64,000 bases of DNA from a bacterium (GTDB lineage: Bacteria > Patescibacteriota > Patescibacteriia > JAACEG01 > JAGUWE01), in NCBI GenBank assembly GCA_043798995.1, contig JAZDOD010000009.1, positions 14,015 through 78,014 of the forward strand. The letters are read 5' to 3'. Both the position numbers and the translations under genes were made by a program. The notes under the pieces were generated by a model, which was given only the letters and a program-made list of their open reading frames with translations, ran no database searches and had not been told where the DNA came from. Positions within the stretch are counted from its first letter, which is position 1, and each line of letters starts with the position of its first letter. This document shows, piece after piece, positions 1 to 52,132 of this stretch.

Positions 1-840
1 AATAATTTGCTGCGATTAAATTTATCAGTTAATTTGCCAACAGAATGAAAAGCAATTAAAGAAATAAATAAAGAAATGGTTTGGATAAAACCAATTGTTT
101 GATATTGTGGAATAATAATAAAAATAAAGAGAGGCCACATAATAATATTGATAAAGTCTTGAAAATTAAAAAAGCCATTAGCGATTAAATCAGGATAAAC
201 CCCTTTAATTTTTACTAAACTAAAATTGATTTTTCTAATTTTTGATGCCTCGGGAGTGGAGAGAAGCAGGGCAATAGCCGGAATTATTATTAAAATTGCT
301 AATAAAAAAGCCCAATTGAAGCCATACTTAGTAATAATGATTCCTCCCAAGAGCGGTCCGGCTGCTGAAAAAACAGCAGAATAGCTATTAATTCGCCCGA
401 TAATTTTCCCGCGGGTTTCATTCGGAGCAATTTTTGAAAAATGTACGTGGTAAGGCAGATATAAAAAAGCCCAGATTGCGCCATAGAAGATAACGCTTCC
501 CCAAAAACCAACGGAAAAGTAATCTATTTTTTGCAAAAAGAAAAAATAGATTACTTGAAAAACAAAGGCAATGGCGATAATTTTTTTAGCGCCAAAGGAA
601 CTGGAAAGATGGGCAGCCAGAGGCAAAAATAACAAACGCCCCAACTGGCTGAGGGCAAAAAATAATAAAATTAAACTAAGAGGAAATCCTTTTTTAAATA
701 AGTAAAGGGGTATAAAAATCTGGACAAAAGAAAGAGCAAAATTATAAAGAGCAACGCTAAAATAAAAAATTTTCAGTTCTTCTTTGGGAGTAAAAAATTT
801 TAACGAATTTGAAAGCGAAAAAAGACCTAAACTTTTCATG
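1..840 (-). CDS. MFS-type transporter, 3'-partial (runs off window start)
   Basis: I hand-translated the minus strand from the ATG at 838-840: MKSLGLFSLSNSLKFF...GRLLFLPLAAHLSSSFGAKK. This has the MFS motif-A pattern and multiple TM helices, and the frame stays open to position 1. It is missing from the ORF track because it is truncated by the window edge. Confidence 0.55.
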
Positions 841-1014
841 TTTCTAATTATTAGTTTTTAAAAATTGATTTTTAATTTTTTTAATTCTTTATCGTTCATA
901 TGATAAACTATATCACAAATTCTATTAAAATTCAGTTGTTGTGGAAAAGTAATTTGCTGTTTTGAGGGGGGGGTGGTAGAATAGGAGTAGGTGCTATAAA
1001 TTGTTTAGAAATTT

Positions 1015-1425
1015 ATGAAAAAAATACTTTGGACAATTATTATATTAACGGAAGCTATTTATTTTATTCTTTATATTCCACTTTCTTTAGATACAAATAT
1101 GTGGCTACCCGAAGAAAGATATAATACTATTTTTAGTCTTTTCATACTACTTCCGTTATTAAATTTTTTACCTTTTGGAATTTTATTGATCATAGCTAAA
1201 AAATTTTTAAAAGAAAGTTCTTCGAGAAAATATCATCAGCGAAAGATGGGTATAATTGGTGCAGGAATCACCGGGTTTATTATAAATCTATTTATAAATA
1301 TCAGTGTTGCTAATAGTAATTCTTCAACAGCAGCCATAGCCTTATTTCTTCTTCCGTTTTATACACTTGCAATAATGCCGATTGGATATTTTATCGGAAG
1401 CACTATTGCTAAAAATAGAAAGTAA
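1015..1425 (+). CDS. small polytopic membrane protein, hypothetical
   Basis: 136-aa ORF that is highly hydrophobic with several predicted TM segments. I recognise no family. Confidence 0.4.
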   Translation: MKKILWTIIILTEAIYFILYIPLSLDTNMWLPEERYNTIFSLFILLPLLNFLPFGILLIIAKKFLKESSSRKYHQRKMGIIGAGITGFIINLFINISVANSNSSTAAIALFLLPFYTLAIMPIGYFIGSTIAKNRK

Positions 1426-1524
1426 TGATTAAAAGATTTTAAACAGGCCTTATATTATTTTCAACCCTACCAAACTTAGGCTCTGGTGGGTTTTTGATTT
1501 ATATCACGATTTATACAGTTCACC

Positions 1525-1600
1525 ATTATCCTGAGTGATAGCGAAGAATCTCTTTTGAGGATTTTAATTATAGATTCTTTACTGCGTTCAGAATGACGAA
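1525..1600. repeat. degenerate sibling copy of the palindromic element found in-frame at 1797-1904
   Basis: Shares the motifs gagtgatagcgaag, ctttact and aatgacga with the 1797-1904 element. Lies just downstream of the ligase-like gene stop at 1623. Confidence 0.35.
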
Positions 1601-1622
1601 AAAACAAAGATTAAATTAATTC

Positions 1623-3122
1623 TTATTCTTCAGCATTCTTTAATACCAACGCCAAAATCAACCAAAAAAGAAGCACCCCAAAATGGTTACTCCAAAGCCA
1701 GTGGTCAAAGAACATCATTGCCAGAAAAGCGATTAAAATGGATAGATATGGTAAGGTTGAAAAATTTAGTCCCAGGTTGTAAGGCGTACGCCCTTTGTCA
1801 TTGCGAGGAGTGATAGCGACGAAGCAATGTCGTAGAAATTGGCTTAATGAGCGGGATTGCCACGCCCCACCCTTTACTCGGAAAGGGCGGGGCTCGCAAT
1901 GACGATTCTGGTCTGTCAAAATAAAGAATATAGAATAAAGAATTAAGAATAAAAAGATAATCAGGCCCACAATGCCCAATTCCGACCAAATAAGTAAATA
2001 AACATTATGCACCGGCTGGTAAAATCTGGCCGGAAAATTTTTATTAACTTCTTGATAAACCGCCAAAGTGTAATTGCTCATACCAACGCCGGCCCAGAAG
2101 TGTTTTTCTCTTAAATTTTGGGATTGTTTTTGATAAGTGGCTCTTTCCGCCAATGATTGCTGTTCTAATTTTTGCTTGCCCTGAAAGCGGCTTAAAAACG
2201 GCTCTTGGTAAATCGAAAACAAGCTGGCAAAAATCAGTGCGCTTATAAGAGCTAATTTTAAAAGACAAAACAGATTGGTTTTGTCTTTTTGTTTTAGAAA
2301 GTAAAGTAAAAACAAAAAACCGGTCAAAGCCAATCCTAACCAGCCGTTTCTTGAAAAAGAAAAAATCAATCCGATGAGAATAATGACATAGAAAATTAAA
2401 CCAATCAAAATTCGCCCGCCAATTTTTTTAAAAATTTTTTCTTGGTTATCTTCGAAAATTTTTTCTAACTTTTTATAAAGGGAAAGATAATAGCCGATTG
2501 CCAAGACCGCAGCTGCCATTAAAAAACCGCCCAAGATATTGGGATGCGGCAGTCCGCCATAAGCGCGCAGCCACCTTCTTTCATCGGTTTGAACCACCGA
2601 GGTGCCGGCTTGGCTCATATCATGATAACCTAAGCCCAGCCATTTAAATGAAAAAGTTTGCTGGGTGATAAATTGCCAAGAAGCCAAAAGAGCTTGGATC
2701 ACGCCGCCTAAAATAAAACTTAGCGCCAAATAATTAAAATTAAGATTAAGATTTAAAACCAGCCAAAACAAAGCTATGGCCTCAGCAATTTTGACCGTCC
2801 AATAAAGCGCCAATAATTTATCAGCTGCCCAAAAAGAAGACGAAGCAGTCCAGAGAATAAAAAGAACACTCAAAAGAAAAAGTGGCAATCTTTTTTTATT
2901 TAACTTTCCTTTGGGCAGTTGGCGATTTAAAAAAGCTAAAACAAGCCAAAGAATAAAAATTAAAACTAAAAGCAAATCAACCGCGTATAAATTAATTTTA
3001 CCGTATTCCCAAACTTGGTTATTCAGTTTCGGTTCGCGCAAAATCAAAGTTGTCTGCCAGGGCAGAAGAAAAACAAAAAGATAAAAAAGATACTCAATTA
3101 ATTTTTCAAGGTTTTTTTTCAT
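1623..3122 (-). CDS. O-antigen ligase/polymerase-like (Wzy_C family) polytopic membrane protein, carrying an in-frame repeat insertion
   Basis: 499 aa with >10 TM helices and an SRNGWLGLAL motif typical of the Wzy_C/O-antigen ligase domain. A hydrophilic segment (QNRHCEPRPFRVKGGAWQSRSLSQFLRHCFVAITPRNDKGRTPY) is out of character and is encoded by the palindromic element at 1797-1904. Confidence 0.6.
   Translation of the reverse strand: MKKNLEKLIEYLFYLFVFLLPWQTTLILREPKLNNQVWEYGKINLYAVDLLLVLIFILWLVLAFLNRQLPKGKLNKKRLPLFLLSVLFILWTASSSFWAADKLLALYWTVKIAEAIALFWLVLNLNLNFNYLALSFILGGVIQALLASWQFITQQTFSFKWLGLGYHDMSQAGTSVVQTDERRWLRAYGGLPHPNILGGFLMAAAVLAIGYYLSLYKKLEKIFEDNQEKIFKKIGGRILIGLIFYVIILIGLIFSFSRNGWLGLALTGFLFLLYFLKQKDKTNLFCLLKLALISALIFASLFSIYQEPFLSRFQGKQKLEQQSLAERATYQKQSQNLREKHFWAGVGMSNYTLAVYQEVNKNFPARFYQPVHNVYLLIWSELGIVGLIIFLFLILYSIFFILTDQNRHCEPRPFRVKGGAWQSRSLSQFLRHCFVAITPRNDKGRTPYNLGLNFSTLPYLSILIAFLAMMFFDHWLWSNHFGVLLFWLILALVLKNAEE
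1797..1904. repeat. small palindromic (MITE/RPE-like) element inserted in-frame in a coding sequence
   Basis: Terminal inverted repeats of 11 bp, gtcattgcgag (1797-1807) and ctcgcaatgac (1893-1903). Internal near-palindrome ccccaccctttactcggaaagggcgggg. Local GC is far above the genome background. The host gene reading frame is maintained through it. Confidence 0.5.
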
Positions 3123-3137
3123 AAATTAATTAAAGTT

Positions 3138-3272
3138 GCTCGGAAAGTAGTTTTTAGAAGACGTTCGCTCGCCCGGCGTGCTCGCTCACTCAGGTCCTCG
3201 GCTCGCTCTTCCGCCTTTGGCGGAAACCATGCCCGCTCGCCTGTGGATGCTTCTAAAAATTACTTTCCTCGC
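3138..3272. mobile_element. MITE-like element with ~23-bp terminal inverted repeats
   Basis: Left end gctcggaaagtagtttttagaag (3138-3160) versus right end cttctaaaaattactttcctcgc (3250-3272) gives 20/23 as inverted repeats. The core is GC-rich with repeated gctcgc motifs. It is intergenic between two minus-strand genes. Confidence 0.45.
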
Positions 3273-3282
3273 TTTTTAATTG

Positions 3283-4227
3283 TTATTCAAATAAAGCCAC
3301 TTTTTTCAAAAAAAGTTCTTTATATTCCAGGCGGCGGTCGCGAGGATGGAATTTTAAAATTTGATCATTAACTATAACCCGGCCGTTAAGGTTGGCAATA
3401 TTTTTAAGATAGGCGGGGAGTATTTTCATTTCAAAAAATTTAGCCAAAGTTTCTAAAAAATCAAAAATACCCCAGTTGAGAAAATTTAAAAAATTAAATT
3501 GCGCGCTTTTTATTTTTCTTTTTAAGTTTGGCAAAGGTGTCGATAAGTTGGGCAGTTTACTTTTTGACCACCGGCTGGCTTGGGAAAATTTTTGATATAT
3601 TTCAACTCGGGCATAAAGAGGATAGATTTGATTTAGCCAAAACTGAAAATGAATATCATCGGGGTAAGCAATTTTTTCTAAATTCAAAACCTCCTCGCTG
3701 ATAAAAAAACTTAGACAAATCTTATTTTTGGTATTATTGGGTTTGGGCCTTAAATTTAGAAATTTAATAACAGCTACGCTCAAGAGTCTGGTCAGCCAGA
3801 GACGATTTTTTTTACCAATTATAAAAAAATCAATGTCCGAATTGTCGCGACTATTGGCAAAAGCCAAAGAATTGCAAATCGCTATCATTTCAACGAAAGG
3901 AACAAATTTAAAAATTTTAGCTATTTTTAAGGCGCGGCGGTATTTTTTTTCGGCTGAGCCATAGCGCCAAAATCGCGTTTCAATGATTTTTTTCCGGCCG
4001 GAAAAAAAATAAAAGCCGTTTTTTCCATCAATCAGCTTTTTTAGCTTCTTATTATTTTCTAATTCAGCTAATACTTCGGAGGCCAAGAATTTTTTTTCCG
4101 GCGGAGTTTCAAAATAAAGATTCTGCCAGATTTCTTCAAGTGTCAAGGGATAATCAAAAATATCAAAATAAGCCACGGCAGAATAAATGGCTTTGGCAAG
4201 TTCGTTATTTTTTTGCTTTTCGTTCAT
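3283..4227 (-). CDS. hypothetical protein (weak nucleotidyltransferase-like NSDIDFFII motif)
   Basis: 314-aa ORF. NSRDNSDIDFFII resembles the hG[GS]...D.D motif of pol-beta-type nucleotidyltransferases only loosely. The stop of the rmuC-like gene overlaps its start by 4 bp. Confidence 0.45.
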   Translation of the reverse strand: MNEKQKNNELAKAIYSAVAYFDIFDYPLTLEEIWQNLYFETPPEKKFLASEVLAELENNKKLKKLIDGKNGFYFFSGRKKIIETRFWRYGSAEKKYRRALKIAKIFKFVPFVEMIAICNSLAFANSRDNSDIDFFIIGKKNRLWLTRLLSVAVIKFLNLRPKPNNTKNKICLSFFISEEVLNLEKIAYPDDIHFQFWLNQIYPLYARVEIYQKFSQASRWSKSKLPNLSTPLPNLKRKIKSAQFNFLNFLNWGIFDFLETLAKFFEMKILPAYLKNIANLNGRVIVNDQILKFHPRDRRLEYKELFLKKVALFE

Positions 4228-5294: not shown

Positions 5295-5398
5295 CCCCTC
5301 CTTTTTAAAAGGAGGGTTAGGGAGGATTTTAAAAATCTCCCTCAATCCCTCTTTTACAAAGAGGGAGGAGAAAATTCTCCTTTAACAAAGGGGATTTT
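5295..5398. repeat. cluster of tandem hairpins, copy R1 of the CCCTCCTTTTAAAAGGAGGG-TTAGGGNGGATTTT family
   Basis: Contains cccctcctttttaaaaggaggg, ttagggaggattttaaaaatctccc and tccctcttttacaaagaggga. Related copies occur at 11019, 11843, 45804 and 49278. Confidence 0.5.
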
Positions 5399-7263: not shown

Positions 7264-8787
7264 TTACTCCACTTTCGGGCGGTATTGCAAGGCCTCGGCC
7301 AGGTGAGGAAGCTCAATGGTTTCTGATTCGGCTAAATCGGCAATGGTGCGGGAAAGTTTGAGGAGGCGGAAATAAGAGCGGGCCGAAAGATGAAGCTGGC
7401 TGACCGCGTTTCTTAAAAGTTCGCGGGCCGGCATGCCGATTTGGCAGAATTCTTTGACCAGCTGCGAAGACATTTCCGCATTGGTCAGAATTTTTAATTT
7501 TTTAAATCTTTTGGCCTGAAGCCGTCGGGCGTGTTCAATTCTTTTTCTGACAGCGGTTGATTTTTCGGCTTGGGAGTCATCATCTAATTTTTCAAATTTA
7601 ATTTTCGGCACCTCAATATGAAGATCAATGCGATCTAAAAGCGGGCCCGAAACTCTTTTTTGATATTTGATAATCTGTGAAGCCGAGCAGATACACTGAC
7701 GGTCCGGATCAGAGTAATAACCGCAGGGGCAGGGGTTTTGCGCCGCCACTAAGATAAATTTGGCCGGAAATTGCAAAGTGCCGGCGGCGCGGGAAACCGT
7801 AATAATGCCATCTTCCAAGGGTTGGCGCAGATTTTCCAAAACTGAATGAGGAAATTCCGCAAATTCATCCAGAAATAAAACTCCGCGGTGAGCCAAACTG
7901 ATTTCTCCGGGCTTGGGCCAGGTGCCGCCGCCGACCAAAGACACGCCCGAAGCGGTGTGATGCGGCGAACGAAAAGGCCGCATTGTAATGAGCGGTTGAT
8001 TTTCCGGCAAAAGCCCGCTGACGCTATAGATTTTTGTCACTTCCAAAGCTTCTTCCAATGTCAGTTGCGGCAGAATTGAAGGCAGAGCTTTGGCCAAAAG
8101 AGTTTTACCGGTGCCGGGCGGTCCGCTCATTAGAATATTATGCGCTCCGGCCGCGGCGATTTCCAAAGCTCGTTTGGCATGCTCCTGGCCCTTGATATGA
8201 GCTAAATCAATTTCAAAATTTAATCCCGGTTCATTAGATAGCAGTGTTTTTTCCCTGGCTTCAATTAATTCTTTAGTATTTAAATGGTTAATTAGCTGAT
8301 TTAAATTTTCTACCGGATAAACATTTAAACCTTCAATCAGGGTTGCTTCGTTGGCATTATCGCGGGGCAAAAAAAGATTTTTAATTTTTTTCTCTTGGCA
8401 AAGCAAAGCCGCTAATAAAACGCCATTGACCGGCCGCAATGTGCCGTCAAGCGAAAGCTCGCCAATAAAAACAGAATCATGAATTAGTTCCGATTCATTG
8501 TTTATTTGGCCTGAAGCCAGAAGAAGCGAAACTGCCAAAGGCAAGTCATAAGCCGGCCCTTCTTTTTTTAAATCAGCCGGCGCTAAATTAACCGTGATGC
8601 GCGTTCGCGGAAAAGCTAAGTCGCTATTTTTGATGGCCGAACGGACGCGTTCGCGCGATTCCTGAACCGAAGTGTCGGGCAGGCCCACCACCACAAAACT
8701 GCCGAGCCCGGCCGAAATATCGGCCTCAACCTCAACTAAAGCGCACTCAAGTCCGACCGGAGCAGCCGAAAATATTTTTGAGGACAT
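7264..8787 (-). CDS. comM: YifB/ComM family Mg-chelatase-like AAA+ ATPase
   Basis: 507 aa. N-terminal Lon-like domain (MSSKIFSAAPVGLECALVEVEADIS). Walker A GPPGTGKT, Walker B, and a C-terminal ChlI-like region. Full-length match to the family pattern. Confidence 0.85.
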   Translation of the reverse strand: MSSKIFSAAPVGLECALVEVEADISAGLGSFVVVGLPDTSVQESRERVRSAIKNSDLAFPRTRITVNLAPADLKKEGPAYDLPLAVSLLLASGQINNESELIHDSVFIGELSLDGTLRPVNGVLLAALLCQEKKIKNLFLPRDNANEATLIEGLNVYPVENLNQLINHLNTKELIEAREKTLLSNEPGLNFEIDLAHIKGQEHAKRALEIAAAGAHNILMSGPPGTGKTLLAKALPSILPQLTLEEALEVTKIYSVSGLLPENQPLITMRPFRSPHHTASGVSLVGGGTWPKPGEISLAHRGVLFLDEFAEFPHSVLENLRQPLEDGIITVSRAAGTLQFPAKFILVAAQNPCPCGYYSDPDRQCICSASQIIKYQKRVSGPLLDRIDLHIEVPKIKFEKLDDDSQAEKSTAVRKRIEHARRLQAKRFKKLKILTNAEMSSQLVKEFCQIGMPARELLRNAVSQLHLSARSYFRLLKLSRTIADLAESETIELPHLAEALQYRPKVE

Positions 8788-8814: not shown

Positions 8815-9228
8815 CTAATTTCTAAAAAGTAGATATTGAATAGTGATAAGTCCCAAGCTTAAATAATTAACCAAACCGATGGAACCATAAGGGGCTTGGA
8901 TTTTAAGGTTAGCCAAAAATTCACGAATAAAAGAATGGTCAAAATTTTTTTTGTCACCAAAAGGATAACCGCGTAGCTTCTGCATCAAAGTTGTCAGTGG
9001 ACAGACGATGCGGTATTTTTTCATATAAGGCATCATCGCCGCGCCCCAGCCCATCTGGATGAGCATAAAGATAAAGATAAACCAGAAATGGAAAGTCACG
9101 CGGCCAGGCCAGAGAAATTTTGGCACAAAAAAAAGCCCGAACCAGATAATAACTATGGCGAGGTGAATAAGGTAAAGAAAATTAATAGTGACTTTTTTCC
9201 AAGTCGGCATATTATAGGATTTTATCAC
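8815..9228 (-). CDS. hypothetical membrane protein
   Basis: 137 aa with three or four TM helices. I cannot assign a family. Confidence 0.45.
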   Translation of the reverse strand: MIKSYNMPTWKKVTINFLYLIHLAIVIIWFGLFFVPKFLWPGRVTFHFWFIFIFMLIQMGWGAAMMPYMKKYRIVCPLTTLMQKLRGYPFGDKKNFDHSFIREFLANLKIQAPYGSIGLVNYLSLGLITIQYLLFRN

Positions 9229-9436: not shown

Positions 9437-9907
9437 TTAAGTTCGGGTTAAATTTATTTTGTTAATTTTTTTTGTTTTGATTTGTGAAAATAAAATTAAT
9501 AATGCCCCAACGGTGATATAGACATCAGCTATGTTGAAAACAGAGAAAAACGGGACATCAATAAAATCAATCACATAGCCAAAATAAAGCCGATCTAATA
9601 AATTGCTGAAAGCTCCGGCTAAAATTAGGGTGAGCGTGAAAACTAAAAAAACATTTTTTTCGCGATAAGACTTTAAAAGAAAATAAACCGCAATCAAGAT
9701 TGCCGCGCCGATTAAAAAATACTGCCAAAAAAGAGGCAGTTTTAAACCCAAAGCTAAATTAGTATTTTTGCCGAATTTTAATTCCAAAAAGCCGGGCCAA
9801 ATTAAATAACCCCGTTTGGCGGGGTTAAATAAGAAAAAAAGTTTGGTTAGGCGATCAAGAGCAAATAAAGCAAGGATTAACAAATTAAGATAAATTATTT
9901 TTTTCAT
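9437..9907 (-). CDS. lspA: lipoprotein signal peptidase (signal peptidase II)
   Basis: 156 aa with four TM segments, an NTNLALG motif (resembles N.GAAF) and FNIADVYITVGA (the catalytic Asp region of LspA). Confidence 0.6.
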   Translation of the reverse strand: MKKIIYLNLLILALFALDRLTKLFFLFNPAKRGYLIWPGFLELKFGKNTNLALGLKLPLFWQYFLIGAAILIAVYFLLKSYREKNVFLVFTLTLILAGAFSNLLDRLYFGYVIDFIDVPFFSVFNIADVYITVGALLILFSQIKTKKINKINLTRT

Positions 9908-9915
9908 TTTTTTAT

Positions 9916-10299
9916 CTACATTTCACCTTTCAATTTTTTCTTGCAAGCGACGCAAGCTGAAGAAACCGGCCTGACAAGGAGGCGCTGGGCATCAATGGGT
10001 TTATGACAATATTTACAGATGCCATAAGTGCCGTTTTTAATCCTTTTAAGCGCTTCATTAATATCGCGCAGAGAATCCTCCAGATTTTTTTCCAAAGGCA
10101 AATTATCAGAAAAAGTTGCCACTTCAGCCACATTTTCATCTTCTTTGTCGCCGAATTCCGGGAAAACCGTGCTGTATTTATCTTTGGTATGTTTATCCGG
10201 CTTGGTAAATTGTTTCAATTCTTCCTCTATTGTCTTTTTTCTTTCTAAAAGTTTTTTCTCAATTTGTTTAGAAGTTTTTTTATCCATAGTCATTGTCAT
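9916..10299 (-). CDS. DksA/TraR-family C4 zinc-finger protein
   Basis: N-terminal coiled coil and a C-terminal CKYCHKPIDAQRL...ACVACKK four-Cys finger. Confidence 0.7.
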   Translation of the reverse strand: MTMTMDKKTSKQIEKKLLERKKTIEEELKQFTKPDKHTKDKYSTVFPEFGDKEDENVAEVATFSDNLPLEKNLEDSLRDINEALKRIKNGTYGICKYCHKPIDAQRLLVRPVSSACVACKKKLKGEM

Positions 10300-10375
10300 T
10301 GAAAATAAAAATTCGGACTATCCGAATAATTTGTATTCTAATTCTATTATAAACTTTAGAGCAACCTTTTGTCAA

Positions 10376-10437
10376 CCCCCACACCTAATAAGCGCATTTA
10401 AATTATTGACTTTTTCAGTGCTTATTAGGTGTGGGGG
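10376..10437. repeat. large hairpin with 20-bp near-perfect stem
   Basis: cccccacacctaataagcgc (10376-10395) pairs with gtgcttattaggtgtggggg (10418-10437) at 19/20, around a 22-nt loop. A gtcaaccccc direct repeat flanks both sides. Confidence 0.5.
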
Positions 10438-10980
10438 TCAACCCCCGTAGCAAATCCCAACGAGGATTTTTCTAAAGGTGGTCTATATAATTTTTCCAAC
10501 TAAAAGAGGCGCAACTAGCGCCCCTTAATATACAAAACAATGTTATTTATTGGGCTGTTGCGCCTCAGGCCATTGAAACCACTTGGACCCGCCGGTGGCA
10601 GGCAATCAAGACCTTATTTCAAAGACCGGATAGCGCAATTCCGACTTTATGCGCGTTCTTCTACCACCTAGTGGTAAGATCTCTATCCTAAGGATAAAAA
10701 TTTACCGTTTTTCACCTTTTGTAGGTGTTTTTTGTTTTTGTTTATGGTGGTTTAGGTCGGTTCTAAGCCAAATGAGGTAGTAAAAGAAACAGAAATTAAG
10801 CCAAAAATCGCTTTTTGCTTCATTTCTCTATGTAAAAGGGCTTTTTATCTATACTAATTTAATTATACCAGCTTTTAGCCCCTCTGTCAATTCAGTTATT
10901 AACAGGATTTAAAGCTAAAATTTATTCCCATGTCTTAAAATTAAAGGAAAGGATGTGGGAAAATAAGTGTTTATTAAAGG

Positions 10981-11001
10981 TTATCCACAGATTTATCCAC
11001 A
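10981..11001 (+). promoter_or_regulatory. two tandem perfect DnaA boxes (TTATCCACA x2)
   Basis: ttatccacag-at-ttatccaca matches the DnaA-box consensus TTATNCACA exactly, twice, 3 nt apart. Further boxes occur at 11830 (TTATCCACT, 1 mismatch) and 42886 (perfect). Confidence 0.4.
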
Positions 11002-11018
11002 GATTAAATCTCCTTTAA

Positions 11019-11086
11019 TCCCTCTTTTTCAAAGAGGGAACTTTTATTCCCTCCTTTTAAAAAGGAGGGTTAGGGTGGATTTTTGA
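11019..11086. repeat. palindromic hairpin cluster, copy R2
   Basis: tccctctttttcaaagaggga + ccctccttttaaaaaggaggg + ttagggtggattttt, immediately 3' of the minus-strand gene ending at 11103. Probably acts as its terminator. Confidence 0.5.
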
Positions 11087-11102
11087 AATTACTCATCCGA
11101 AA

Positions 11103-11762
11103 TTATTCAATAAATTTGAAAGTGGGGAGGATTTGGTCAATTTCTTCTTTAAAAGAATCGGGATATGTCATTTGATAACTTGTATTATTGACATTAACAA
11201 TAATAAAAGTTAATGGTTTATTATTTGGATATTCCTCCCTTATATTTTTACAATCACCTTCGGTGTATCCATATGGCAGATAATATTTCATTCCCTTTGT
11301 GTTACCGACATTAATACTTTGACTGAAATTATTACTAAGACATAATATGTGATCTAAGTAACTTTGCTCAACAGAGGATTGCTTATTTATACGCAAACCG
11401 TCCGATTGAGTTATTTTATAGATCCCTAATTCTTGGGTTTGTTGAATTTCGTATTTTTTATAGATTTTCGGATACCTAAACTCAAAGCCATAGTCCTCGT
11501 TGCGATAAGTTTGCCAAGTAGAAGTTTCATCTACTTCTTCAAGTTTTAATTGATTTATCTGTGTTTGCAAATCAGTAATTTGTTGGTTTAATTGCTGTAA
11601 TTCTTGCCGATTTTTGTTAATTTCGTTTTTAGCTTCTTCTAATAAAAAATTTTGCCACCAATAAACCCCACTACCAGTTATTAGAGCGGTAAAAATTATA
11701 GCAACAGCTATCAGCCAAATGTTTTTTGAATTTTGGGTTGGTTCGTTAATTTGTTGGTTCAT
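11103..11762 (-). CDS. hypothetical secreted/anchored protein with N-terminal TM and coiled coil
   Basis: 219 aa. N-terminal TM (IWLIAVAIIFTALITGSGVYWW), Q/L-rich coiled coil, then a globular C-terminus. No family recognised. Confidence 0.5.
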   Translation of the reverse strand: MNQQINEPTQNSKNIWLIAVAIIFTALITGSGVYWWQNFLLEEAKNEINKNRQELQQLNQQITDLQTQINQLKLEEVDETSTWQTYRNEDYGFEFRYPKIYKKYEIQQTQELGIYKITQSDGLRINKQSSVEQSYLDHILCLSNNFSQSINVGNTKGMKYYLPYGYTEGDCKNIREEYPNNKPLTFIIVNVNNTSYQMTYPDSFKEEIDQILPTFKFIE

Positions 11763-11842
11763 AATATTTTGTTAATTAAAAAAATTTATATTTTAATCCT
11801 ACCACACCCCCACCCCAAACCGCAAATTATTTATCCACTTTT

Positions 11843-11900
11843 AAAAATCTCCCCCAACCCCTCTTTAACAAAGAGGGGAGGACAAATAAATCCCTCTTAG
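11843..11900. repeat. palindromic hairpin cluster, copy R3
   Basis: aaaaatctccccc, cccctctttaacaaagagggg. An adjacent inverted repeat aatgacaaag...ttgtcatt lies at 11925-11965. Confidence 0.4.
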
Positions 11901-11985
11901 TCTTTCTTTACAACCGGAATGACAAAGATTTTTTTAATTTTAAATTGTCATTTTTATTTTTGATATTTGATTTTTGATTTTGTTA

Positions 11986-13746
11986 TTACACCTCAATCAC
12001 CACCGGCAAAATCATTGGCCGGCGCTGGGTTTTGGAGTATAAGAACTGGCCGATGGAATCGCGGAGCGTGCTTCTGATATAGGCCCAGTTAATCGGAGTT
12101 TCTTTAGTTTTCTGGGCAATAATTTGCTTGACCTTGCGTTTGGTCTGGGCCAAAAGCTCGCCCGATTCTTTCATATAAACAAAGCCGCGCGAAATTATAT
12201 CCGGATCTTGGATTATTTTGCCGGTTTTGCTGTCAATAATGACAATAATAGTAAACATACCGTCTTTGGACATCATCTGGCGATCGCGCAACACTACCTG
12301 CCCGACATCACCGATGCCCAAGCCGTCAACCATAATGTAATTGGTCGGGGCGCGCTTGTCGGTCAGCCGGATATTTTTGGCCGTTACTTCTACTATCTGG
12401 CCATTATCCGGAATGACAATGTTTTTTTCCGGCACGCCGACTGTCTGGGCTAATTCGGCATGGAGCTTTAACATATAATAATTGCCGTGGATAGGAATAA
12501 AAAAAGTAGGCCGGACTAAATTAATCATCATTTTTAAATCCTCAACCTGGGCATGGCCGCCGGCGTGGACATCCATCATCTGGTAATGAATAATTTTGGC
12601 GCCGTGGCGGCTTAAAGTATCTTTAACATGCTGGACGGTGCGTTCATTGCCCGGAATAACCGAGGAAGAAAAGATAACCGTATCGCCGGCTTTAATGCGG
12701 ATAAAGCGATGCTCTTTATTAACAATGCGCATCAAGACGGCCCGGTCTTCGCCCTGGGCGCCGGTGCAGAGCACTAAAATTTTATTGTCCGGCCAGTCGC
12801 GGAGTCGTTCAATATTAATAAAGGTGTCTTTTTTAACCTTAAGATAGCCCAAGTTGCGGGCGATTTCCACATTGGTTTTCATGCTATAACCGTCAACCAC
12901 GACTTTACGATGGTATTTTTCAGCCAGATAAATCAATTCCTGGAGGCGCGAAATTAAAGAAGAGAAAGTCGCGGCAATGATGCGGCCCTCGGCATTTTTG
13001 AAAATATCATCCAAAGTATCCTGAATGGTTTTCTCCGAAATTGAATAGCCGGGTGTATCAGCATCGGTTGAATCGGACATTAAAAGAAGCACGCCGCGGG
13101 CGCCAAGCTGGGCCAGATGAGCAATGTCAGCCGGTTCGTCGCCCACCGGGCTGTGGTCAAATTTAAAGTCGCCGGTATAAATAACGGTGCCGACCGGCGT
13201 ATGCAAAGCTATGCCCAAACTATCCGGAATATTGTGATTGAGGCGAAAAAATTCAGCTTCAAAGCAGCCAAGGCGCACACGATCTTTCTTTTTAACTATA
13301 TTAAGATTAAGATGAGTACCGTTGGGATAATCTTCCTGGCGTTTTTTAATAATAGCCGCCGTCAGCGCCGCGGTATAAATCGGCGGATTGCCGATTTTCG
13401 GCATAATATGGGGGATAGCGCCGATATGATCATAGTGGCCGTGGGTGATAATGACGCCGCGGATGTTTTTGGTTTTTTCCTGAAGATAGGCGGCGTTGGG
13501 AATAATATAATCAATGCCCGGCATATCTTCTTCCGGAAACTGCAAACCCATATCAATAACTATAATATCCGAGTCATACTCAAAAACGGTCATATTTCGA
13601 CCCACTTCCTCCAAACCGCCTAAAGGAATAATTTTTAAAGTATCCTCTGCCGGATGGCTTAAACCCCGATCGATCCTTTGGATTCTGCGAGGCGAACGGT
13701 AATAAGACCTGCGAGTTGTTGATTTTTTGTGTAAAGTTTCAATCAT
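11986..13746 (-). CDS. rnj: ribonuclease J (metallo-beta-lactamase / beta-CASP RNase)
   Basis: 586 aa. HGHYDHIG metallo-beta-lactamase motif, beta-CASP region and RNase J C-terminal domain. N-terminal R/S-rich extension. Confidence 0.85.
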   Translation of the reverse strand: MIETLHKKSTTRRSYYRSPRRIQRIDRGLSHPAEDTLKIIPLGGLEEVGRNMTVFEYDSDIIVIDMGLQFPEEDMPGIDYIIPNAAYLQEKTKNIRGVIITHGHYDHIGAIPHIMPKIGNPPIYTAALTAAIIKKRQEDYPNGTHLNLNIVKKKDRVRLGCFEAEFFRLNHNIPDSLGIALHTPVGTVIYTGDFKFDHSPVGDEPADIAHLAQLGARGVLLLMSDSTDADTPGYSISEKTIQDTLDDIFKNAEGRIIAATFSSLISRLQELIYLAEKYHRKVVVDGYSMKTNVEIARNLGYLKVKKDTFINIERLRDWPDNKILVLCTGAQGEDRAVLMRIVNKEHRFIRIKAGDTVIFSSSVIPGNERTVQHVKDTLSRHGAKIIHYQMMDVHAGGHAQVEDLKMMINLVRPTFFIPIHGNYYMLKLHAELAQTVGVPEKNIVIPDNGQIVEVTAKNIRLTDKRAPTNYIMVDGLGIGDVGQVVLRDRQMMSKDGMFTIIVIIDSKTGKIIQDPDIISRGFVYMKESGELLAQTKRKVKQIIAQKTKETPINWAYIRSTLRDSIGQFLYSKTQRRPMILPVVIEV

Positions 13747-13834
13747 AAAGTATTAAATTAATTTTTAATTTTTAAATAAATTTCAATTTTTAATGTCAAA
13801 TTAATAAATATTTGCCTTGCACTAAATTTATTTG

Positions 13835-13916
13835 TGCCGATGGTGGGAGTTGAACCCACAAGCCTTGCGGCATACGGCTCTGAACCGTACGTGTTTGCCA
13901 ATTTCACCACATCGGC
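13835..13916 (-). tRNA. tRNA-Leu (anticodon CAG), class II with long variable arm
   Basis: Folded by hand from the reverse complement. Acceptor GCCGATG/CATCGGC plus discriminator A. Anticodon loop UUCAGAG. Variable stem-loop GCC-GCAA-GGC. T arm GTGGG-TTCAACT-CCCAC. Confidence 0.8.
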
Positions 13917-14018
13917 GCGGGCCAGGTCTACCAGGCCTGCCCCGTACCTTTCCGCCAGCCGGCGGATCTGGTGCGGGGTTCCACCACTCGCCCAAAATTA
14001 AAAACAAGAAAAAAGTTG
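13917..14018 (-). other. GC-rich (~60%) structured spacer between the two tRNA-Leu genes, possible small ncRNA or processing element
   Basis: Three hairpins can be drawn: UGGUG-N8-CACCA, CCGCC-GGCU-GGCGG, and a GGCC-rich stem. The GC content stands out from background, as for structured RNAs in low-GC genomes. No family assigned. Confidence 0.2.
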
Positions 14019-14103
14019 TGCCGGGGACAGGATTTGAACCTGCACAGAGTTGCCCCCACTGCCACCTCAAGGCAGCGTGTCTACCAGATTCCACCACCCC
14101 GGC
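14019..14103 (-). tRNA. tRNA-Leu (anticodon GAG), class II with long variable arm
   Basis: Acceptor GCCGGGG/CCCCGGC plus A. Anticodon stem-loop CTGCC-TTGAGGT-GGCAG. Long variable arm. T arm GCAGG-TTCAAAT-CCTGT. Confidence 0.8.
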
Positions 14104-14222
14104 TAATGAAAATTAAAAATAAAATATCAAAAATCAAAAACACAAATTAAAAAATTTTTAATTTTGTTTTGTAATTTTGACTTTTGCCTTTTAAATTTTG
14201 GATTAAGCTTCAAATGTAAAAA

Positions 14223-14252
14223 TAAGGAGAGTTATTTAGAAGTCTCCCCTGA
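14223..14252 (-). terminator. rho-independent terminator downstream of rplS
   Basis: Minus strand reads GGGGAGAC...CTCTCC followed by UUAUUUUU. Confidence 0.4.
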
Positions 14253-14277
14253 TTTTATGTGATAGAAGAGAGTTTAA

Positions 14278-14625
14278 CTAAGAGATCTTTTCCTCTTTGA
14301 GTCGTTTAGGATTATCTCTTAAGAAGTAAAGTTTAGCACGTCTTGTTTTAAATTTTTTAACAAGTTCTATTTTAGTAATTGAAGGTAAATGCAAAGGGAA
14401 GATTTTTTCCACGCCCACGCCATAAGATTCCTTGCGGACAATCACGGTTTCCGAAAGGCCGCTGCCGCGGCGGGACAGAACCAGGCCCTCAAAGGCCTGA
14501 ATGCGCTCTTTTAATTCGCCTTTGGGGCTGAGTTCTTTAATTTTTTGATGGATTTTAACCAGCATGCCCGGCTGAATTTCAGTGGGTTTAATTATTTTTT
14601 TTTCCTTAGTTTTTACTTTAATCAT
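14278..14625 (-). CDS. rplS: 50S ribosomal protein L19
   Basis: 115 aa. [36 protein letters not shown] and RRAKLYFLR align with the L19 consensus along the whole length. Confidence 0.9.
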
Positions 14626-14702
14626 AAAATAAAGAATTACATTATTAACTATTATAGCGCATTATTGAGATTTTGTCAACGATTTGTATAATTAGAATAA
14701 AA

Positions 14703-14735
14703 AAAGCAGGTTTTTAGGCCTGCCGTTTTTGCTGT
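14703..14735 (-). terminator. rho-independent terminator (minus strand GCAGGCCUAAAAACCUGC + U7)
   Basis: Perfect stem followed by a U-tract on the minus strand. A near-identical copy lies at 14984-15012. Confidence 0.5.
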
Positions 14736-14742
14736 TTAATTC

Positions 14743-14910
14743 TCAGATTTTACTATTTTTTATTTCTCTCAATATTCTTTCTCCTCTTCTTTTTTCTTGT
14801 TCTTTAGATATACATTCATCCACATAAACTTTATGGAAAATAGCAGTTTGTAACTTATCACTCCAACAAACATCATATTCAATCCCATCTTCGTCAAATA
14901 ATTTAACCAT
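14743..14910 (-). CDS. small hypothetical protein (55 aa)
   Basis: MVKLFDEDGIEYDVCWSDKLQTAIFHKVYVDECISKEQEKRRGERILREIKNSKI. Preceded by a G9 homopolymer (plus-strand C9 at 14913-14921) and followed by a terminator. Below the ORF-track size cutoff. Confidence 0.3.
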   Translation of the reverse strand: MVKLFDEDGIEYDVCWSDKLQTAIFHKVYVDECISKEQEKRRGERILREIKNSKI

Positions 14911-14983
14911 CGCCCCCCCCCTTTTTTAAAAAAAATTACCATTTGCTTTTATTTTAAATCTTTGCAAAAAATTTTGCAAGAAA

Positions 14984-15012
14984 AAAGCAGGTTTTTGGGG
15001 CCTGCTTTGCTG
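14984..15012 (-). terminator. rho-independent terminator (second copy)
   Basis: Minus strand reads GCAGGCCCCAAAAACCUGC followed by UUUUUU. Confidence 0.45.
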
Positions 15013-15026
15013 ATTAAAAATTTTAC

Positions 15027-15221
15027 TTAAATTGCCATAACCTTTTTTATAAGGTCTTCCGCTGTCATTTTTCTCAACTCTCCTGTTGAAAAACTAAGGG
15101 TTTTATTGGGTGATGAACAAACCGAGCAACCATCTTGTGAATTTTCATCACGTATAAGATGTGCTTCTGATATCTCCAGGAGCGCTCCCTTTAAACGGAT
15201 TATCACTAAGTTAGATATCAT
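15027..15221 (-). CDS. small hypothetical protein (64 aa)
   Basis: Start chosen at the internal Met MISNLVIIRLKG..., which has a strong SD (GGAGGGG) 4 nt upstream. The upstream part of the track ORF overlaps the neighbouring gene out of frame. Confidence 0.35.
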   Translation of the reverse strand: MISNLVIIRLKGALLEISEAHLIRDENSQDGCSVCSSPNKTLSFSTGELRKMTAEDLIKKVMAI

Positions 15222-15237
15222 AGAACCCCTCCTTTTT

Positions 15238-15681
15238 TTAAAGGATATGCAAAGAATTTTTTGCTCGGATACGATTCCACTCCTCATTACCCATAATAAT
15301 AATGGGTAATCCCCAATATTTTTTTGCGTGTTTTGCAAAATATTCCCTTGCCTCCAACTCTGTGATTGTCCTCCCGTTCTCTGCCGATAGATACATATGA
15401 ACATGCAGATAAAACTCCGGGATAAGTACGCAAGGGCCGAGACCATGATTCTTGCCCCATTCTACCTCAAGCCAGTCAGGAATCGGTTTGCCATACCACC
15501 AAGGCACCACTTTTATTAATCCTCGCGCTGCACCCAGATTAATTCCTATGAAATATTCGCCACAATGGGGGCAGATGCTGTCTCGATGATAAACTTTTGG
15601 ACACAGATCAAAGTATCCATAACACTTTAAACACTGAACTCTTTTCACGCCGCCAAAATTACACTTATCTAAAGAACACAT
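15238..15681 (-). CDS. Cys-rich (double zinc-ribbon) hypothetical protein
   Basis: N-terminus C-x4-C...C-x2-C...C...C-x2-C (CSLDKCNFGGVKRVQCLKCYGYFDLCPKVYHRDSICPHCGEYF). C-terminal domain of unknown family. SD GGGAGGT. Codon usage is GC-shifted relative to its neighbours. Confidence 0.45.
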   Translation of the reverse strand: MCSLDKCNFGGVKRVQCLKCYGYFDLCPKVYHRDSICPHCGEYFIGINLGAARGLIKVVPWWYGKPIPDWLEVEWGKNHGLGPCVLIPEFYLHVHMYLSAENGRTITELEAREYFAKHAKKYWGLPIIIMGNEEWNRIRAKNSLHIL

Positions 15682-15694
15682 CCTTTACCTCCCT

Positions 15695-15907
15695 TTAAAT
15701 TTGATATCTTAGATCAAGATACTTGATTAAAGATTCTTCTGTCGGTTTTCCGTTGCCGATTTTATAAGCGCCTATATAAAGTTCCTCCAACTTGACACCG
15801 TGTCTTTTTGCCACGCAACAGCATAATTGATATGCGCGTTTAGAGATTTTAAATTTTATTAAGATGCCTTTCCATTCAAAAGAGACTTTAATTTTATTCT
15901 TACCCAT
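15695..15907 (-). CDS. small basic protein, possible ribbon-helix-helix DNA binder
   Basis: 70 aa. FKISKRAYQLCCCVAKRHGVKLEELYIGAYKIG fits a beta-alpha-alpha pattern. SD GGGAGGGT. The assignment is speculative. Confidence 0.35.
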   Translation of the reverse strand: MGKNKIKVSFEWKGILIKFKISKRAYQLCCCVAKRHGVKLEELYIGAYKIGNGKPTEESLIKYLDLRYQI

Positions 15908-16105
15908 TTACCCTCCCTTTCATTGTTTTTAAGTTTTGTCAAAGGGCCATTTTTTTATTCTTAGCAAAGTTTTAAACTTTTGTCAATCTAAAATATTTGC
16001 TTCTATTTCCCTTTTCTTTTATAATAATATATAATGTATATTAAGAAAAATAATAATTAAGAGTTTCTTAGGGACTCAAATTTTTGGTATTGTAAAATAT
16101 AATTT

Positions 16106-17959
16106 ATGCAGAATATAATCAAAAACTTTTTAATCATCTTTGTAACTTTTTTAGCCATATCTTTCGTTTTTAGTTTTTATTTTAATCCTCAAGAACAAAC
16201 CAAAGAAATCAGTTTAAGCGCTTTGGTTGAGCAGATTAATAATGAGCAGGTCAAACAAATAGAAATTTCGGGCAATAATTTAAATGTTACTTTAAACGAC
16301 AATACTAAAGAAAAAGCGGCTAAAGAACCGGAAGAGTCATTAAGTTCAACGCTGAAAAATTACGGCGTAGCGCCGGACAAACTTGTCAAACTTAACATTA
16401 TTAATAAAACCGAGTCGGGTTGGGAATTTTGGCTGGCTAATCTTTTGCCGATTGTTATTCCCTTTTTGCTGATCGCCGGTTTTATTTATTTTATGATGCG
16501 TCAGGCGCAGGGCGCTAACCGCCGGGCTTTGATGTTCGGCCAGTCGCAAGCCCGAGAAGTCAAGCCACAGGACAAAAAAACACAAACAACTTTTAAGGGC
16601 GTGGCTGGCGCTAAAGAAGCCAAAGAAGAGCTTTACGAAATTGTTGAGTTTTTAAAAGATCCGAAGAAATTTACTTCCATCGGCGCTAAAATTCCTAAAG
16701 GAGTTCTGCTTTTGGGGCCGCCCGGAGTTGGCAAGACACTTTTGGCGCGGGCTGTGGCCGGTGAAGCCAATGTGCCGTTTTTTCATATTTCCGGTTCGGA
16801 ATTTGTGGAAATGTTTGTTGGCGTTGGCGCGGCCCGGGCGCGCGATCTTTTCCAGCGGGCCAAAAAGAACGCGCCTTCAATTTTATTTATTGATGAAATT
16901 GATGCCGTCGGCCGTCGGCGAGGGGCAGGCTTGGGCGGTTCGCATGATGAACGGGAGCAAACCTTAAATCAGATTTTGGTTGAAATGGACGGCTTTGATC
17001 CGCATACCAATGTCATTGTCATTGCCGCCACTAACCGGCCGGATGTTTTGGATCCGGCGCTGCTTAGGCCCGGTCGTTTTGACCGCCGCATAGTTTTGGA
17101 CCTGCCGGACATTGCGGATCGCGAAGCAATTCTTAAAGTTCATGCCCAAAACAAACCCTTGGCGCCGGAAGTGAATCTTCGCCGGGTAGCTGAAAGAACG
17201 CCGGGTTTTTCCGGAGCCGATTTGGAAAATTTGTTAAATGAAGCCGCAATTTTAACAGCGCGGCGCAATAAAAAACAAATCAGCCAAGGCGAGATTTTTG
17301 AAAGTATTGAAAAAGTTCTCTTGGGTCCGGAGCGCAAAAGCCATATTTTATCCAAGCGCGAAAAAGAAATCATAGCAGTTCATGAAGCCGGGCATGCTTT
17401 GGTGGCGCATGAATTGCCTAACGCCGATCCGGTCCATAAAGTTTCGATTATTTCCCGTGGCCGGGCCGCTGGCTATACCTTAAAATTACCCTTAGAAGAC
17501 AAACATTTTCATACCAAAGCTGAATTTTTGGATGATTTGGCCGTGTTTTTAGCCGGCTATGCTGCGGAAAGAGAAATTTTTAAGGAAATTACTACCGGCG
17601 CAGCCAATGATTTAAAACAAGCCACGCAATTAGCCAAGAGATTAGTAACGGATTTTGGCATGAGCCAAAATATGCCGCCGCGGACTTTTGGCGAAAGGGA
17701 AGAATTGATTTTTTTGGGTCGGGAAATTACCGAACAGCGCGATTACAGCGAAAAAATCGCCGAACAAATTGATCAGGAAATCTCCCAGTTTATTAACATT
17801 GCCCTCACAACCGCCACCTCAGTTATCAAAAAGAAAAAAGGGAAACTGCTTGAAATTAAAAATTTATTAATGGAAAAAGAAACTCTTGAGCAGGAAGAAT
17901 TTGAATCTATCTTTAAAAAGAAAGAGAAGAAAGTTGAAGTTCAAATTAATATAAAATAA
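16106..17959 (+). CDS. ftsH: ATP-dependent zinc metalloprotease FtsH
   Basis: N-terminal TM pair. AAA core ([23 protein letters not shown], Walker B, SRH). HEAGHAL zinc-binding motif. C-terminal helical domain. Confidence 0.92.
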
Positions 17960-42831: not shown

Positions 42832-42900
42832 CAGCGGATAAAAGGGAAATTAAAGATTTCCCCAAATTGCCTTCGGCAACTTCTTTTATCCACAAAACGT
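42826..42900. repeat. post-stop junction element, copy D, imperfect ~70-bp palindrome containing a perfect DnaA box
   Basis: gctaacagcggataaaag...cttcttttatccacaaaacgtta. The arms ggataaaag and cttttatcc pair, and there is an internal hairpin gggaaat...atttccc. It overlaps the stop at 42831. Confidence 0.4.
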
Positions 42901-42924: not shown

Positions 42925-43596
42925 TTGCTTATGAATGACTTTAATGATATTGTCGAGAGACATAGAAAAAGAGGCGAAGAAATTGTAGAAAAGTTTAAAC
43001 AGGACTCAGAAAGGAGGGAAGCCAAAATGGCTAAAGGCGTAGAGCGACTTGAGGATTTATCAATGCAGAATTTCGCCTCTTGGCGAGATTATCTATACAA
43101 ATACTTCAGCGTTATCTTATTACTTATCGGAGCCACAGGAGTTTTGCAATCGGAAAAGTTTAATGACCCATGGTTTAAAGCAGGTATATTCACAACTCTG
43201 GTTGGAGTCTTCATTGGCTATGTTTTTATCAATATATATTTCTATATAGAAAGAAAGTGGCTCCAAGCGCAAAATATCATTGGCTTAGAAGGAACTTACT
43301 CTTTACATGAACACCCCAAAGCAAAAACGGGCGATATCCGAGAAGCAATTATCCTCCATCAGCTAGATTATATAGAACAGATCAAGAAAAGATTAGAGGA
43401 AGCTAAAGCGAATAATGACAAAAAAATGATAAGACATTACAAAAAGGTTATTAGGATTAATAAGCGATTAAACTTTTCCATCAAATTTACTGGGGAGCAG
43501 TTTGGTATAATAGAACACATTTGGATATCAGGGACAATACTAAGCTTATTCCTAACGATCTCTGGTATAGCAATTGTTTTCTTAAACATTCGATAA
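42925..43596 (+). CDS. hypothetical membrane protein with N-terminal coiled-coil segment
   Basis: 223 aa with four TM helices. Confidence 0.4.
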   Translation: MLMNDFNDIVERHRKRGEEIVEKFKQDSERREAKMAKGVERLEDLSMQNFASWRDYLYKYFSVILLLIGATGVLQSEKFNDPWFKAGIFTTLVGVFIGYVFINIYFYIERKWLQAQNIIGLEGTYSLHEHPKAKTGDIREAIILHQLDYIEQIKKRLEEAKANNDKKMIRHYKKVIRINKRLNFSIKFTGEQFGIIEHIWISGTILSLFLTISGIAIVFLNIR

Positions 43597-52016: not shown

Positions 52017-52132
52017 AATTTTAGGGTGGACCCCGTAAGAAGTCAGCCCAACGCTACTTTAATAGAAACTGAGAATTTAAAAATCAATAGGGCACTTTTT
52101 ATATAAAGATACATTTGTCTGACTTCTTACGG

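Follow-up and report, generated by a model that had tools for sequence, protein, structure and literature searches.

What occupies the roughly 800 bp between a dksA-like gene and a 219-amino-acid (aa) gene in a 64-kb stretch of Patescibacteria DNA (the whole stretch analysed here, hereafter the window), and why do two perfect DnaA boxes lie within it? The initial annotation of this gap (positions 10300-11102) proposed three candidates: an unannotated non-coding RNA (ncRNA) on the minus strand, a DnaA-regulated promoter, or an oriC-like element displaced from dnaA. The first candidate is supported by a promoter, a terminator, covariation and conservation. We consider it probable that the gap contains an independent minus-strand gene for a structured ncRNA of ~355 nt with a DnaA-box site upstream, and that DnaA would tune its promoter and the RNA would act in trans. 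The second candidate stands in so far as the promoter is tied to conserved DnaA boxes, its control by DnaA being a prediction. The third is contradicted by GC skew, gene orientation and dnaA linkage alike.

The minus strand, on which all genes around the gap lie, contains no open reading frame (ORF) of at least 40 aa in this region, and the plus strand contains only two 43-aa ORFs. The ORF-free character initially noted for the region is thus borne out; that it is the longest non-coding stretch of the window is plausible, since the other large gaps are filled by ORFs of at least 50 aa. The closest relative is a Logan contig (L081) in which the DksA-like protein is 85% identical, the gene order is equal and the gap measures 890 bp. 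Because the loops carry indels relative to L081, several of them 1 nt long, the gap is not coding, and a coding reading was ruled out by the lack of a minus-strand ORF of at least 40 aa and by 1-nt indels inside conserved blocks. L081 aligns to positions 10493-10921 of the window at 76% identity. The 22-nt DnaA-box pair is identical in the two sequences (22/22), both promoters retain their hexamers while the spacers diverge, and the stems differ by compensatory substitutions.

A consensus scan revealed two sigma-70 promoters matching at 12 of 12 positions, P1 (with a TG extension) and P2, both on the minus strand. Read along this strand, the gap consists of the putative terminators of gene 11103-11762, the DnaA boxes, P1, the ~355-nt RNA with its terminator, a palindromic insertion, P2, a leader hairpin and the dksA-like gene. 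P1 (10862-10890) features the -35 hexamer TTGACA (10890-10885), a 17-bp spacer and the extended -10 element TGgTATAAT (10870-10862); comparison with L081 and 17 further loci shows invariant hexamers around a spacer that has diverged. The structured RNA (10502-10855) has a predicted 5' end at ~10855 and a predicted 3' end after the U-run at ~10502. Its terminator, GGGGCGC-uaguu-GCGCCUC followed by UUUU, spans 10524-10502, and both stem and U-run are conserved with compensatory changes across relatives. A G.U pair of this stem corresponds to an A.C mismatch on the plus strand. The GC-rich structured block described at 10500-10700 is real: folding of 10300-10860 yielded -187.8 kcal/mol (z = -9.1) for the minus strand and -164.7 kcal/mol (z = -7.2) for the plus strand.

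The predicted fold begins with the 5' hairpin H1 (10791-10829), which is followed by H2, a long-range helix in which the pyrimidine-rich strand UUUCUUUUACUACC (10776-10789) pairs with the purine-rich strand GGUGGUAGAAGAA (10656-10668). H2 encloses the hairpin H3 (10748-10770), the loop of which, CCGAC, is predicted to kiss the GUCGG of H5; a nearly invariant, single-stranded A/C block, AUAAACAAAAACAAAAAAC (10727-10745), which coincides with invariant alignment columns; and H4, composed of the hairpins H4a (10713-10727) and H4b (10673-10706), in which CACCU/AGGUG and CCUG/CAGG are compensatory alternatives. H5 (10633-10654), with the conserved loop AAGUCGGAA, comes next. The 3' domain (10502-10632) consists of a long hairpin, H6, and a terminator helix made up of a distal arm, GAGGCGCAAC (10557-10566), and GUUGCGCCUC, with UUUU at the end; the 3' arm of this domain is able to pair with either the distal or a proximal 5' arm. 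All of these elements lie on the minus strand. The minimum free energy fold of the window RNA alone reproduces H1, H2, H3, H4a/b, H5 and the terminator domain. In the RNAalifold structure of 11 sequences, 89 pairs are predicted, 45 of which show compensatory changes; the single-stranded block inside H2 reads ACAAAAACAAAAACAAAA, and the H5 loop reads AGUCAG.

Covariation is heavy in five helices, and the kissing loop covaries as well. In a MAFFT alignment of 47 sequences, 90.9% of the H1 and H2 cells are paired, compared with 77.8% after shuffling, and double changes number 169 versus 52; none of 500 shuffles reached the observed values, and controls with slid partners were 46-61% paired. Since MAFFT, when applied to the whole length and to all subgroups together, places the middle and the 3' half incorrectly, only the H2-H5 core was modelled, as a covariance model (R1) of 144 positions. 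R1 gave 59 matches, including the window copy (10632-10790, minus strand, 38 bits, E = 1.4e-5). In the resulting alignment, 94.7% of the core cells are paired (72.1% shuffled), with 370 double changes against 94.5 in shuffled alignments, 0/500 shuffles reaching the observed values and 45-55% pairing in slid controls. The kissing loop between H3 and H5, which lies outside the model, was scored on the same 59-match alignment: paired cells amount to 91.7% versus 83.5% shuffled, double changes to 26 versus 8.6, again with 0/500 shuffles reaching the observed values, and slid controls range from 10 to 41%. Its variants include CUGAC/GUCAG, CCGAC/GUCGG (the window), GUUGAC/GUCAAC, GUUCAC/GUGAAC and GCCGAC/GUCGGC.

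The strand of the RNA follows from the covarying helices, in which U.G pairs are frequent and at several positions the commonest pair (for instance, in 50 of 54 sequences at one H2 pair); the minus strand is thereby fixed as the RNA strand. The H4a stem resembles a terminator if read on the plus strand, and a plus-strand RNA ending at this "terminator" (10713-10727) was considered and rejected, as it is the minus strand that carries both the conserved promoter and the conserved terminator, and the G.U pairs of the covarying helices occur only there.

The RNA is not confined to the window. A set of 82 distinct genome loci, the window's own piece included, was fetched via the dksA-like protein, and an nhmmer profile, built iteratively with the window and L081 as the starting point, found the RNA in 27 of them. 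It lies immediately before dksA and in the same direction in every case but one (L050). Metagenomes were scanned independently of dksA, with a pattern consisting of P1 and the invariant A-block only; 120 loci were returned, and nhmmer found the RNA in 71. The same pattern had eight matches in viral contigs, none of which contained the RNA. Overall, the RNA was found in some 80 distinct loci of Patescibacteria, genomic and metagenomic ones taken together. Record titles name Buchananbacteria, Kuenenbacteria, Magasanikbacteria, Uhrbacteria, Falkowbacteria and the "Parcubacteria group". Among long or complete genomes, the module is carried by JBAZSB010000001.1 (near 713 kb) and CAWFCE010000002.1 (near 322 kb). 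A search of the window for U-rich targets of the A-block was uninformative, the pattern being of low complexity.

At the gathering score, Rfam 15 detects only a transfer-messenger RNA (tmRNA) and tRNAs in the window. With E <= 10, positions 10200-11200 gave only sub-threshold matches to unrelated families, mostly eukaryotic microRNA and small nucleolar RNA models. Over the RNA, no Rfam 15 match was obtained in 17 related loci and nine type-2 loci (described below) at the gathering score, or in locus L019 at a permissive E-value. Lack of an Rfam match had been named beforehand as a refutation of the ncRNA candidate; it is read here as the mark of a new family rather than of an absent RNA. A literature search on structured RNAs of Patescibacteria, DnaA-box-controlled small RNAs, and RNase P, 6S RNA or origin features of the candidate phyla radiation (CPR) found nothing relevant. 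Comparative sequence analysis thus defines a new structured RNA family that is conserved in many lineages of Patescibacteria and has no counterpart in Rfam 15. The tmRNA gene of the window maps to 52132-52533 on the minus strand and scores 127 bits.

A second kind of module, here termed type-2, was observed 500-950 nt upstream of dksA in Magasanikbacteria-type loci (L022, L024, L025, L048 and L070; also L063, L069, L041 and L027). In this module an extended -10 promoter is accompanied by the palindromes TTTTGGCTAnnnnTAGCCAAAA and TTTGTATAnnnnnnnnTATACAAA and by three to four DnaA boxes arranged head to tail. The putative type-2 RNA that follows, of ~400 nt, is similar in length and different in look, and no Rfam family matches it.

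The two perfect DnaA boxes reported in the initial annotation are present at 10981-11001, where they read TTATCCACA-gat-TTATCCACA on the plus strand and TGTGGATAA-atc-TGTGGATAA on the RNA strand; they are arranged head to tail with a 12-bp period, their starts lying 111 and 99 bp before the P1 -35 hexamer. For the window as a whole, 0.36 perfect boxes would be expected and three are present; the expectation for a tandem pair within three mismatches is 0.07. A degenerate, DnaA-box-like 9-mer, TGTTAATAA (10896-10904, minus strand), is located just upstream of the -35 hexamer, at a place where L081 has TGTTTATAA.

Boxes were surveyed in 79 distinct family members, 74 of which have enough upstream sequence. 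A perfect TGTGGATAA on the RNA strand occurs between -170 and -60 from the -35 hexamer in 58/74 loci, and a box within one mismatch in 67/74; the mode of the distance is -110 or -111. Of the 93 perfect boxes counted within 1.5 kb on either side of the -35 hexamer, the -150 to -51 bins account for 80, which share one orientation without exception. Most of the 8-kb genome loci have no perfect box besides the one upstream of P1. A degenerate TGTTAATAA usually comes 2-3 nt after it; in the window and L081 the second box is perfect. Strong boxes number one or two per locus, up to four in some, and are all in one orientation. In L050, where the RNA has moved 3.3 kb and to the other strand, the boxes have been kept. 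L028 carries the same 9-mer in front of dnaA, which fits the notion that this is the DnaA box of these bacteria. Taken as a putative DnaA site, this is a compact, strictly oriented group of boxes ~100 bp upstream of P1 that is inherited together with the RNA. The third perfect box of the window (42886-42894) lies elsewhere, ~30 nt upstream of an ORF (42925-43596) encoding 223 aa with no Pfam match.

Downstream of the RNA, a dksA-like gene is found within 600 nt and on the same strand in 54 of the 66 RNA-pattern loci with room for it, and is usually followed by lspA. Two further loci have a divergent dksA-like gene, and in one subgroup the RNA is located beside ychF instead of dksA. Where the interval between the RNA terminator and dksA was examined, it contains a consensus promoter, and the RNA is therefore taken to be a separate transcription unit. 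Judged by this gene order, the RNA is persistently linked to the gene of a DksA-like, RNA-polymerase-binding factor, though as a unit of its own. In the window the corresponding promoter is P2 (10346-10375), with TTGACA at 10375-10370, an 18-bp spacer and a TATAAT ending at 10346; it is conserved in L081.

Because P2 follows the RNA terminator, the short hairpin in front of the dksA-like gene belongs to the dksA leader. This hairpin, ATTCGGA-TAG-TCCGAAT (10311-10327) with a T-run at 10302-10310 on the minus strand, is present as initially described, but the long minus-strand transcript thought to end at 10300-10330 is wrong: the RNA is predicted to end at its own terminator (10524-10502), and the hairpin (feature 10302-10327) may be an attenuator of dksA. 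A short hairpin with a U-run recurs in the dksA leader, downstream of the promoter, in the window, in L081 (~3320-3350) and in type-2 loci. It reads UUCGGAUAGUCCGAA plus U5 in the window and CAGUCGCUCCGACUG plus CUUU.U6 in type-2 loci.

The palindrome between the two units, for which a 20-bp stem at 10376-10437 had been reported, is also present. Its stem measures 19 bp instead, with perfectly paired arms at 10375-10393 and 10420-10438 (overall 10375-10438, not assigned to a strand). It is a 66-bp insertion flanked by 10-bp direct repeats, GGGGGTTGAC, at 10371-10380 and 10437-10446, which duplicate the -35 hexamer of the dksA promoter. The palindrome is single-copy in the window and absent from L081.

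We therefore favour, with good confidence, the independent RNA gene introduced above. Transcription would start at P1, a near-consensus, extended -10 sigma-70 promoter, and end at the intrinsic terminator of the RNA itself. DnaA bound at the box site would tune P1, so that the level of the RNA would follow the replication-initiator state of the cell, and the RNA would act in trans, maybe jointly with the RNA-polymerase-binding DksA-like protein. Several points weigh against this reading. The boxes are centred about 140 bp upstream of the start site, which is far for simple repression or activation, and in 16/74 loci the -170 to -60 range contains no perfect box. The R1 alignment was fitted to the structure of the model and the sequences are related, so the shuffle counts overstate significance; the slid-partner controls and the unmodelled kissing loop point the same way as the R1 counts. 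The 3' half varies between subgroups, and the subgroup of the window consists of two sequences, which gives weaker support there. The ends of the RNA and its expression are predictions.

A more far-reaching proposal is that this is a class of RNA whose level is set by DnaA and which works with or on the transcription machinery, coupling replication status to global transcription. The link to the transcription machinery is suggested by the retention of the RNA gene beside that of DksA, a factor of the RNA polymerase secondary channel. In one possible mode, the RNA would bind RNA polymerase or the DksA-like protein. The functional surface would be made up of the kissing-loop core and the A/C block, which is invariant and single-stranded. 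We put this forward tentatively, as a possibility that is doubtful at present.

Other explanations divide according to whether they concern the boxes or the RNA. The box site might be a DnaA-management locus, serving titration or nucleotide exchange in the manner of datA, DARS or the Bacillus subtilis clusters, that merely adjoins the RNA gene and does not control P1. Non-origin clusters of DnaA boxes are established in other bacteria, the boxes are located far upstream of the start site (~-145), and type-2 loci contain arrays of three to four head-to-tail boxes, all of which would suit such a locus. Against it, the boxes keep a tight distance and orientation to the -35 hexamer (mode -110 or -111) and have moved with promoter and RNA in L050, and an extra degenerate box abuts the -35 hexamer in the window and L081. 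We regard this explanation as unlikely. The RNA, in turn, might be a very divergent housekeeping RNA, 6S RNA or RNase P RNA, missed by the Rfam models. Its size, strong promoter and complex fold with a tertiary contact would fit, as would its linkage to the gene of an RNA-polymerase-binding factor. Moreover, RNase P RNA is expected somewhere in these genomes because rnpA is present in the lineage (L028), yet neither RNase P RNA nor 6S RNA was seen in the window, the 17 related loci or the nine type-2 loci. Against this, the models RF00010, RF00011 and RF00013 remain unmatched at E <= 10 in the window region and at E <= 1 in L019, and the detection of the window tmRNA at 127 bits indicates that Rfam models work in this lineage. 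Covariation supports a multi-branched fold that includes a kissing loop, unlike 6S RNA with its rod and central bubble, and the consensus strands of P4 in RNase P RNA are absent when the sequence is read directly. A housekeeping RNA of this kind is, in our judgement, improbable.

The two remaining explanations take the region as a cis-acting element. A dksA leader, that is, a riboswitch or attenuator with a regulated terminator, would account for the position of the RNA immediately before dksA, and in the same direction, in 54/66 loci, and the 3' arm of the terminator, able to pair with either of two 5' arms, might be seen as a switch. Neither pairing qualifies as an antiterminator, because the U-run follows both; furthermore, in the loci examined, dksA is preceded by a consensus promoter of its own beyond the terminator, and the RNA also occurs away from dksA (L050 and the ychF subgroup). 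The probability of a leader is very low. Still less probable is that the module is a chromosomal origin, or part of one, in which the strong promoter provides transcriptional activation. Perfect tandem boxes beside an AT-rich stretch are suggestive of an origin, and in L028 the module is located 1.1 kb from the dnaA-rpmH intergenic region. Yet the cumulative GC-skew minimum of the window falls at ~15-17 kb, where the coding strand switches, not at 10.3-11.1 kb, and the GC-skew check proposed in the initial annotation therefore counts against an origin. When the 79 loci are oriented by the RNA, GC skew has a positive sign to either side of the module (-1 kb bin, +0.10; bin from the -35 hexamer, +0.09; +1 kb bin, +0.12), and ORFs on the strand of the RNA prevail both upstream, where they run toward the module (51:5), and downstream (78:10). 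The module thus appears to lie inside a co-oriented block; in the window itself, the genes from 11103 to 15681 all point toward the DnaA-box site. Only one or two strong boxes of a single orientation are typical. The AT-rich DNA is on the promoter side of the boxes, while the other side, toward which TTATCCACA reads, is taken by terminators or the end of a coding region. Finally, dnaA is absent from the window, and tblastn found it in only one (L028) of 203 loci. The lack of a sign change in skew, the co-oriented flanking genes and the lack of dnaA linkage led us to reject the module as oriC.

In L028, positions 718-3960 comprise, in order, dnaA (minus strand), DnaA boxes, rpmH-rnpA-yidD (plus strand), a box array, P1 with the RNA, and dksA. 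In the window, the switch of coding strand and a local minimum of cumulative GC skew coincide at 15681-16106, upstream of ftsH. No DnaA-box cluster was found at this strand-switch region, so the true origin is probably located outside the window.

The window is AT-rich (GC content 32-46%), and the best relatives of its proteins are found in uncultivated Patescibacteria/CPR bacteria. Neither dnaA nor dnaN was found in its 64 kb. On the minus strand, a comM-like gene (7264-8787), a DUF2784 gene (8815-9228) and lspA (9437-9907) precede the dksA/traR-type zinc-finger gene (9916-10299), the relatives of which begin at MDKK (position 10287); an exact-sequence look-up of the dksA-like protein gave no record. 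On the other side of the gap lie the 219-aa gene (11103-11762) and an RNase J gene (11986-13746), both also on the minus strand, beyond which come two tRNA-Leu genes and rplS. The tRNA-Leu genes (CAG and GAG) map to 13834-13916 and 14018-14103 on the minus strand.

Two stem-loops, CCCTCCTTTTTAAAAGGAGGG and CCCTCTTTGAAAAAGAGGG (11019-11080, minus strand), are the probable terminators of the 219-aa gene and copies of a hairpin that recurs at 5347 and 11859. The hairpin repeat initially noted after the boxes, CCCTCTTTnnCAAAGAGGG, was located at 11020, 11859 and 5347, and the further box with one mismatch is TTATCCACT at 11831-11839. Both belong to a ~45-nt unit composed of a DnaA-box-like 9-mer, AAATCTCC and the hairpin CCCTCTTTnnCAAAGAGGG, which occurs at 10993-11038 and 11831-11877. 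The presence of this unit on both sides of the 219-aa gene explains the one-mismatch box, and points to an insertion or duplication that involved gene and unit together.

Patescibacteria account for a large share of bacterial diversity and have tiny genomes with very few regulators; to our knowledge, they are almost unstudied at the RNA level. A conserved and probably highly expressed RNA with a defined tertiary fold that is encoded beside a putative binding site of the replication initiator and the gene of a transcription factor offers a testable entry into the coordination of replication and gene expression in these bacteria. If the proposal holds, global transcription would be linked to replication status in organisms with very few regulators. 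The alignment, consensus structure and covariance model provide a new RNA family for annotation, and the locus shows that an origin is not necessarily present where perfect DnaA boxes occur away from dnaA.

As in the DnaA-regulated promoters of Escherichia coli dnaA and nrdAB and of sda, ywlC and other genes of B. subtilis, consensus 9-mer boxes are conserved upstream of a non-origin, sigma-70-type promoter. Here, in contrast, the product is a large structured RNA rather than a protein, and the strong boxes of the putative DnaA site are placed ~100 bp upstream of the -35 hexamer at a nearly fixed distance and orientation. The small non-origin cluster kept at one chromosomal place recalls datA, DARS and the DnaA-box clusters of B. 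subtilis, but the present site is tied to one promoter in distance and orientation and is inherited with the RNA gene of that promoter. Head-to-tail tandem boxes beside AT-rich DNA also occur in oriC with its DnaA-trio unwinding module; in our loci, however, there are no skew switch, no divergent genes and no dnaA linkage, the boxes seem too few, and a trio or unwinding element would fall on the wrong side of them. Like 6S RNA (ssrS), the RNA is a stand-alone gene with a strong promoter, a probably abundant product and a plausible connection to RNA polymerase, here through the neighbouring dksA, although it is twice as long, lacks the rod with a central bubble and does not match RF00013. The family resembles OLE, ROOL, GOLLD and raiA in that several hundred nucleotides form a covarying fold of multiple helices with a tertiary contact, the RNA has a promoter and a terminator of its own, it is restricted to one lineage, and it keeps a conserved gene neighbour. 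It matches none of them in sequence or structure, as judged by Rfam, and is distinguished by its occurrence in Patescibacteria and its association with DnaA boxes and a dksA-like gene.

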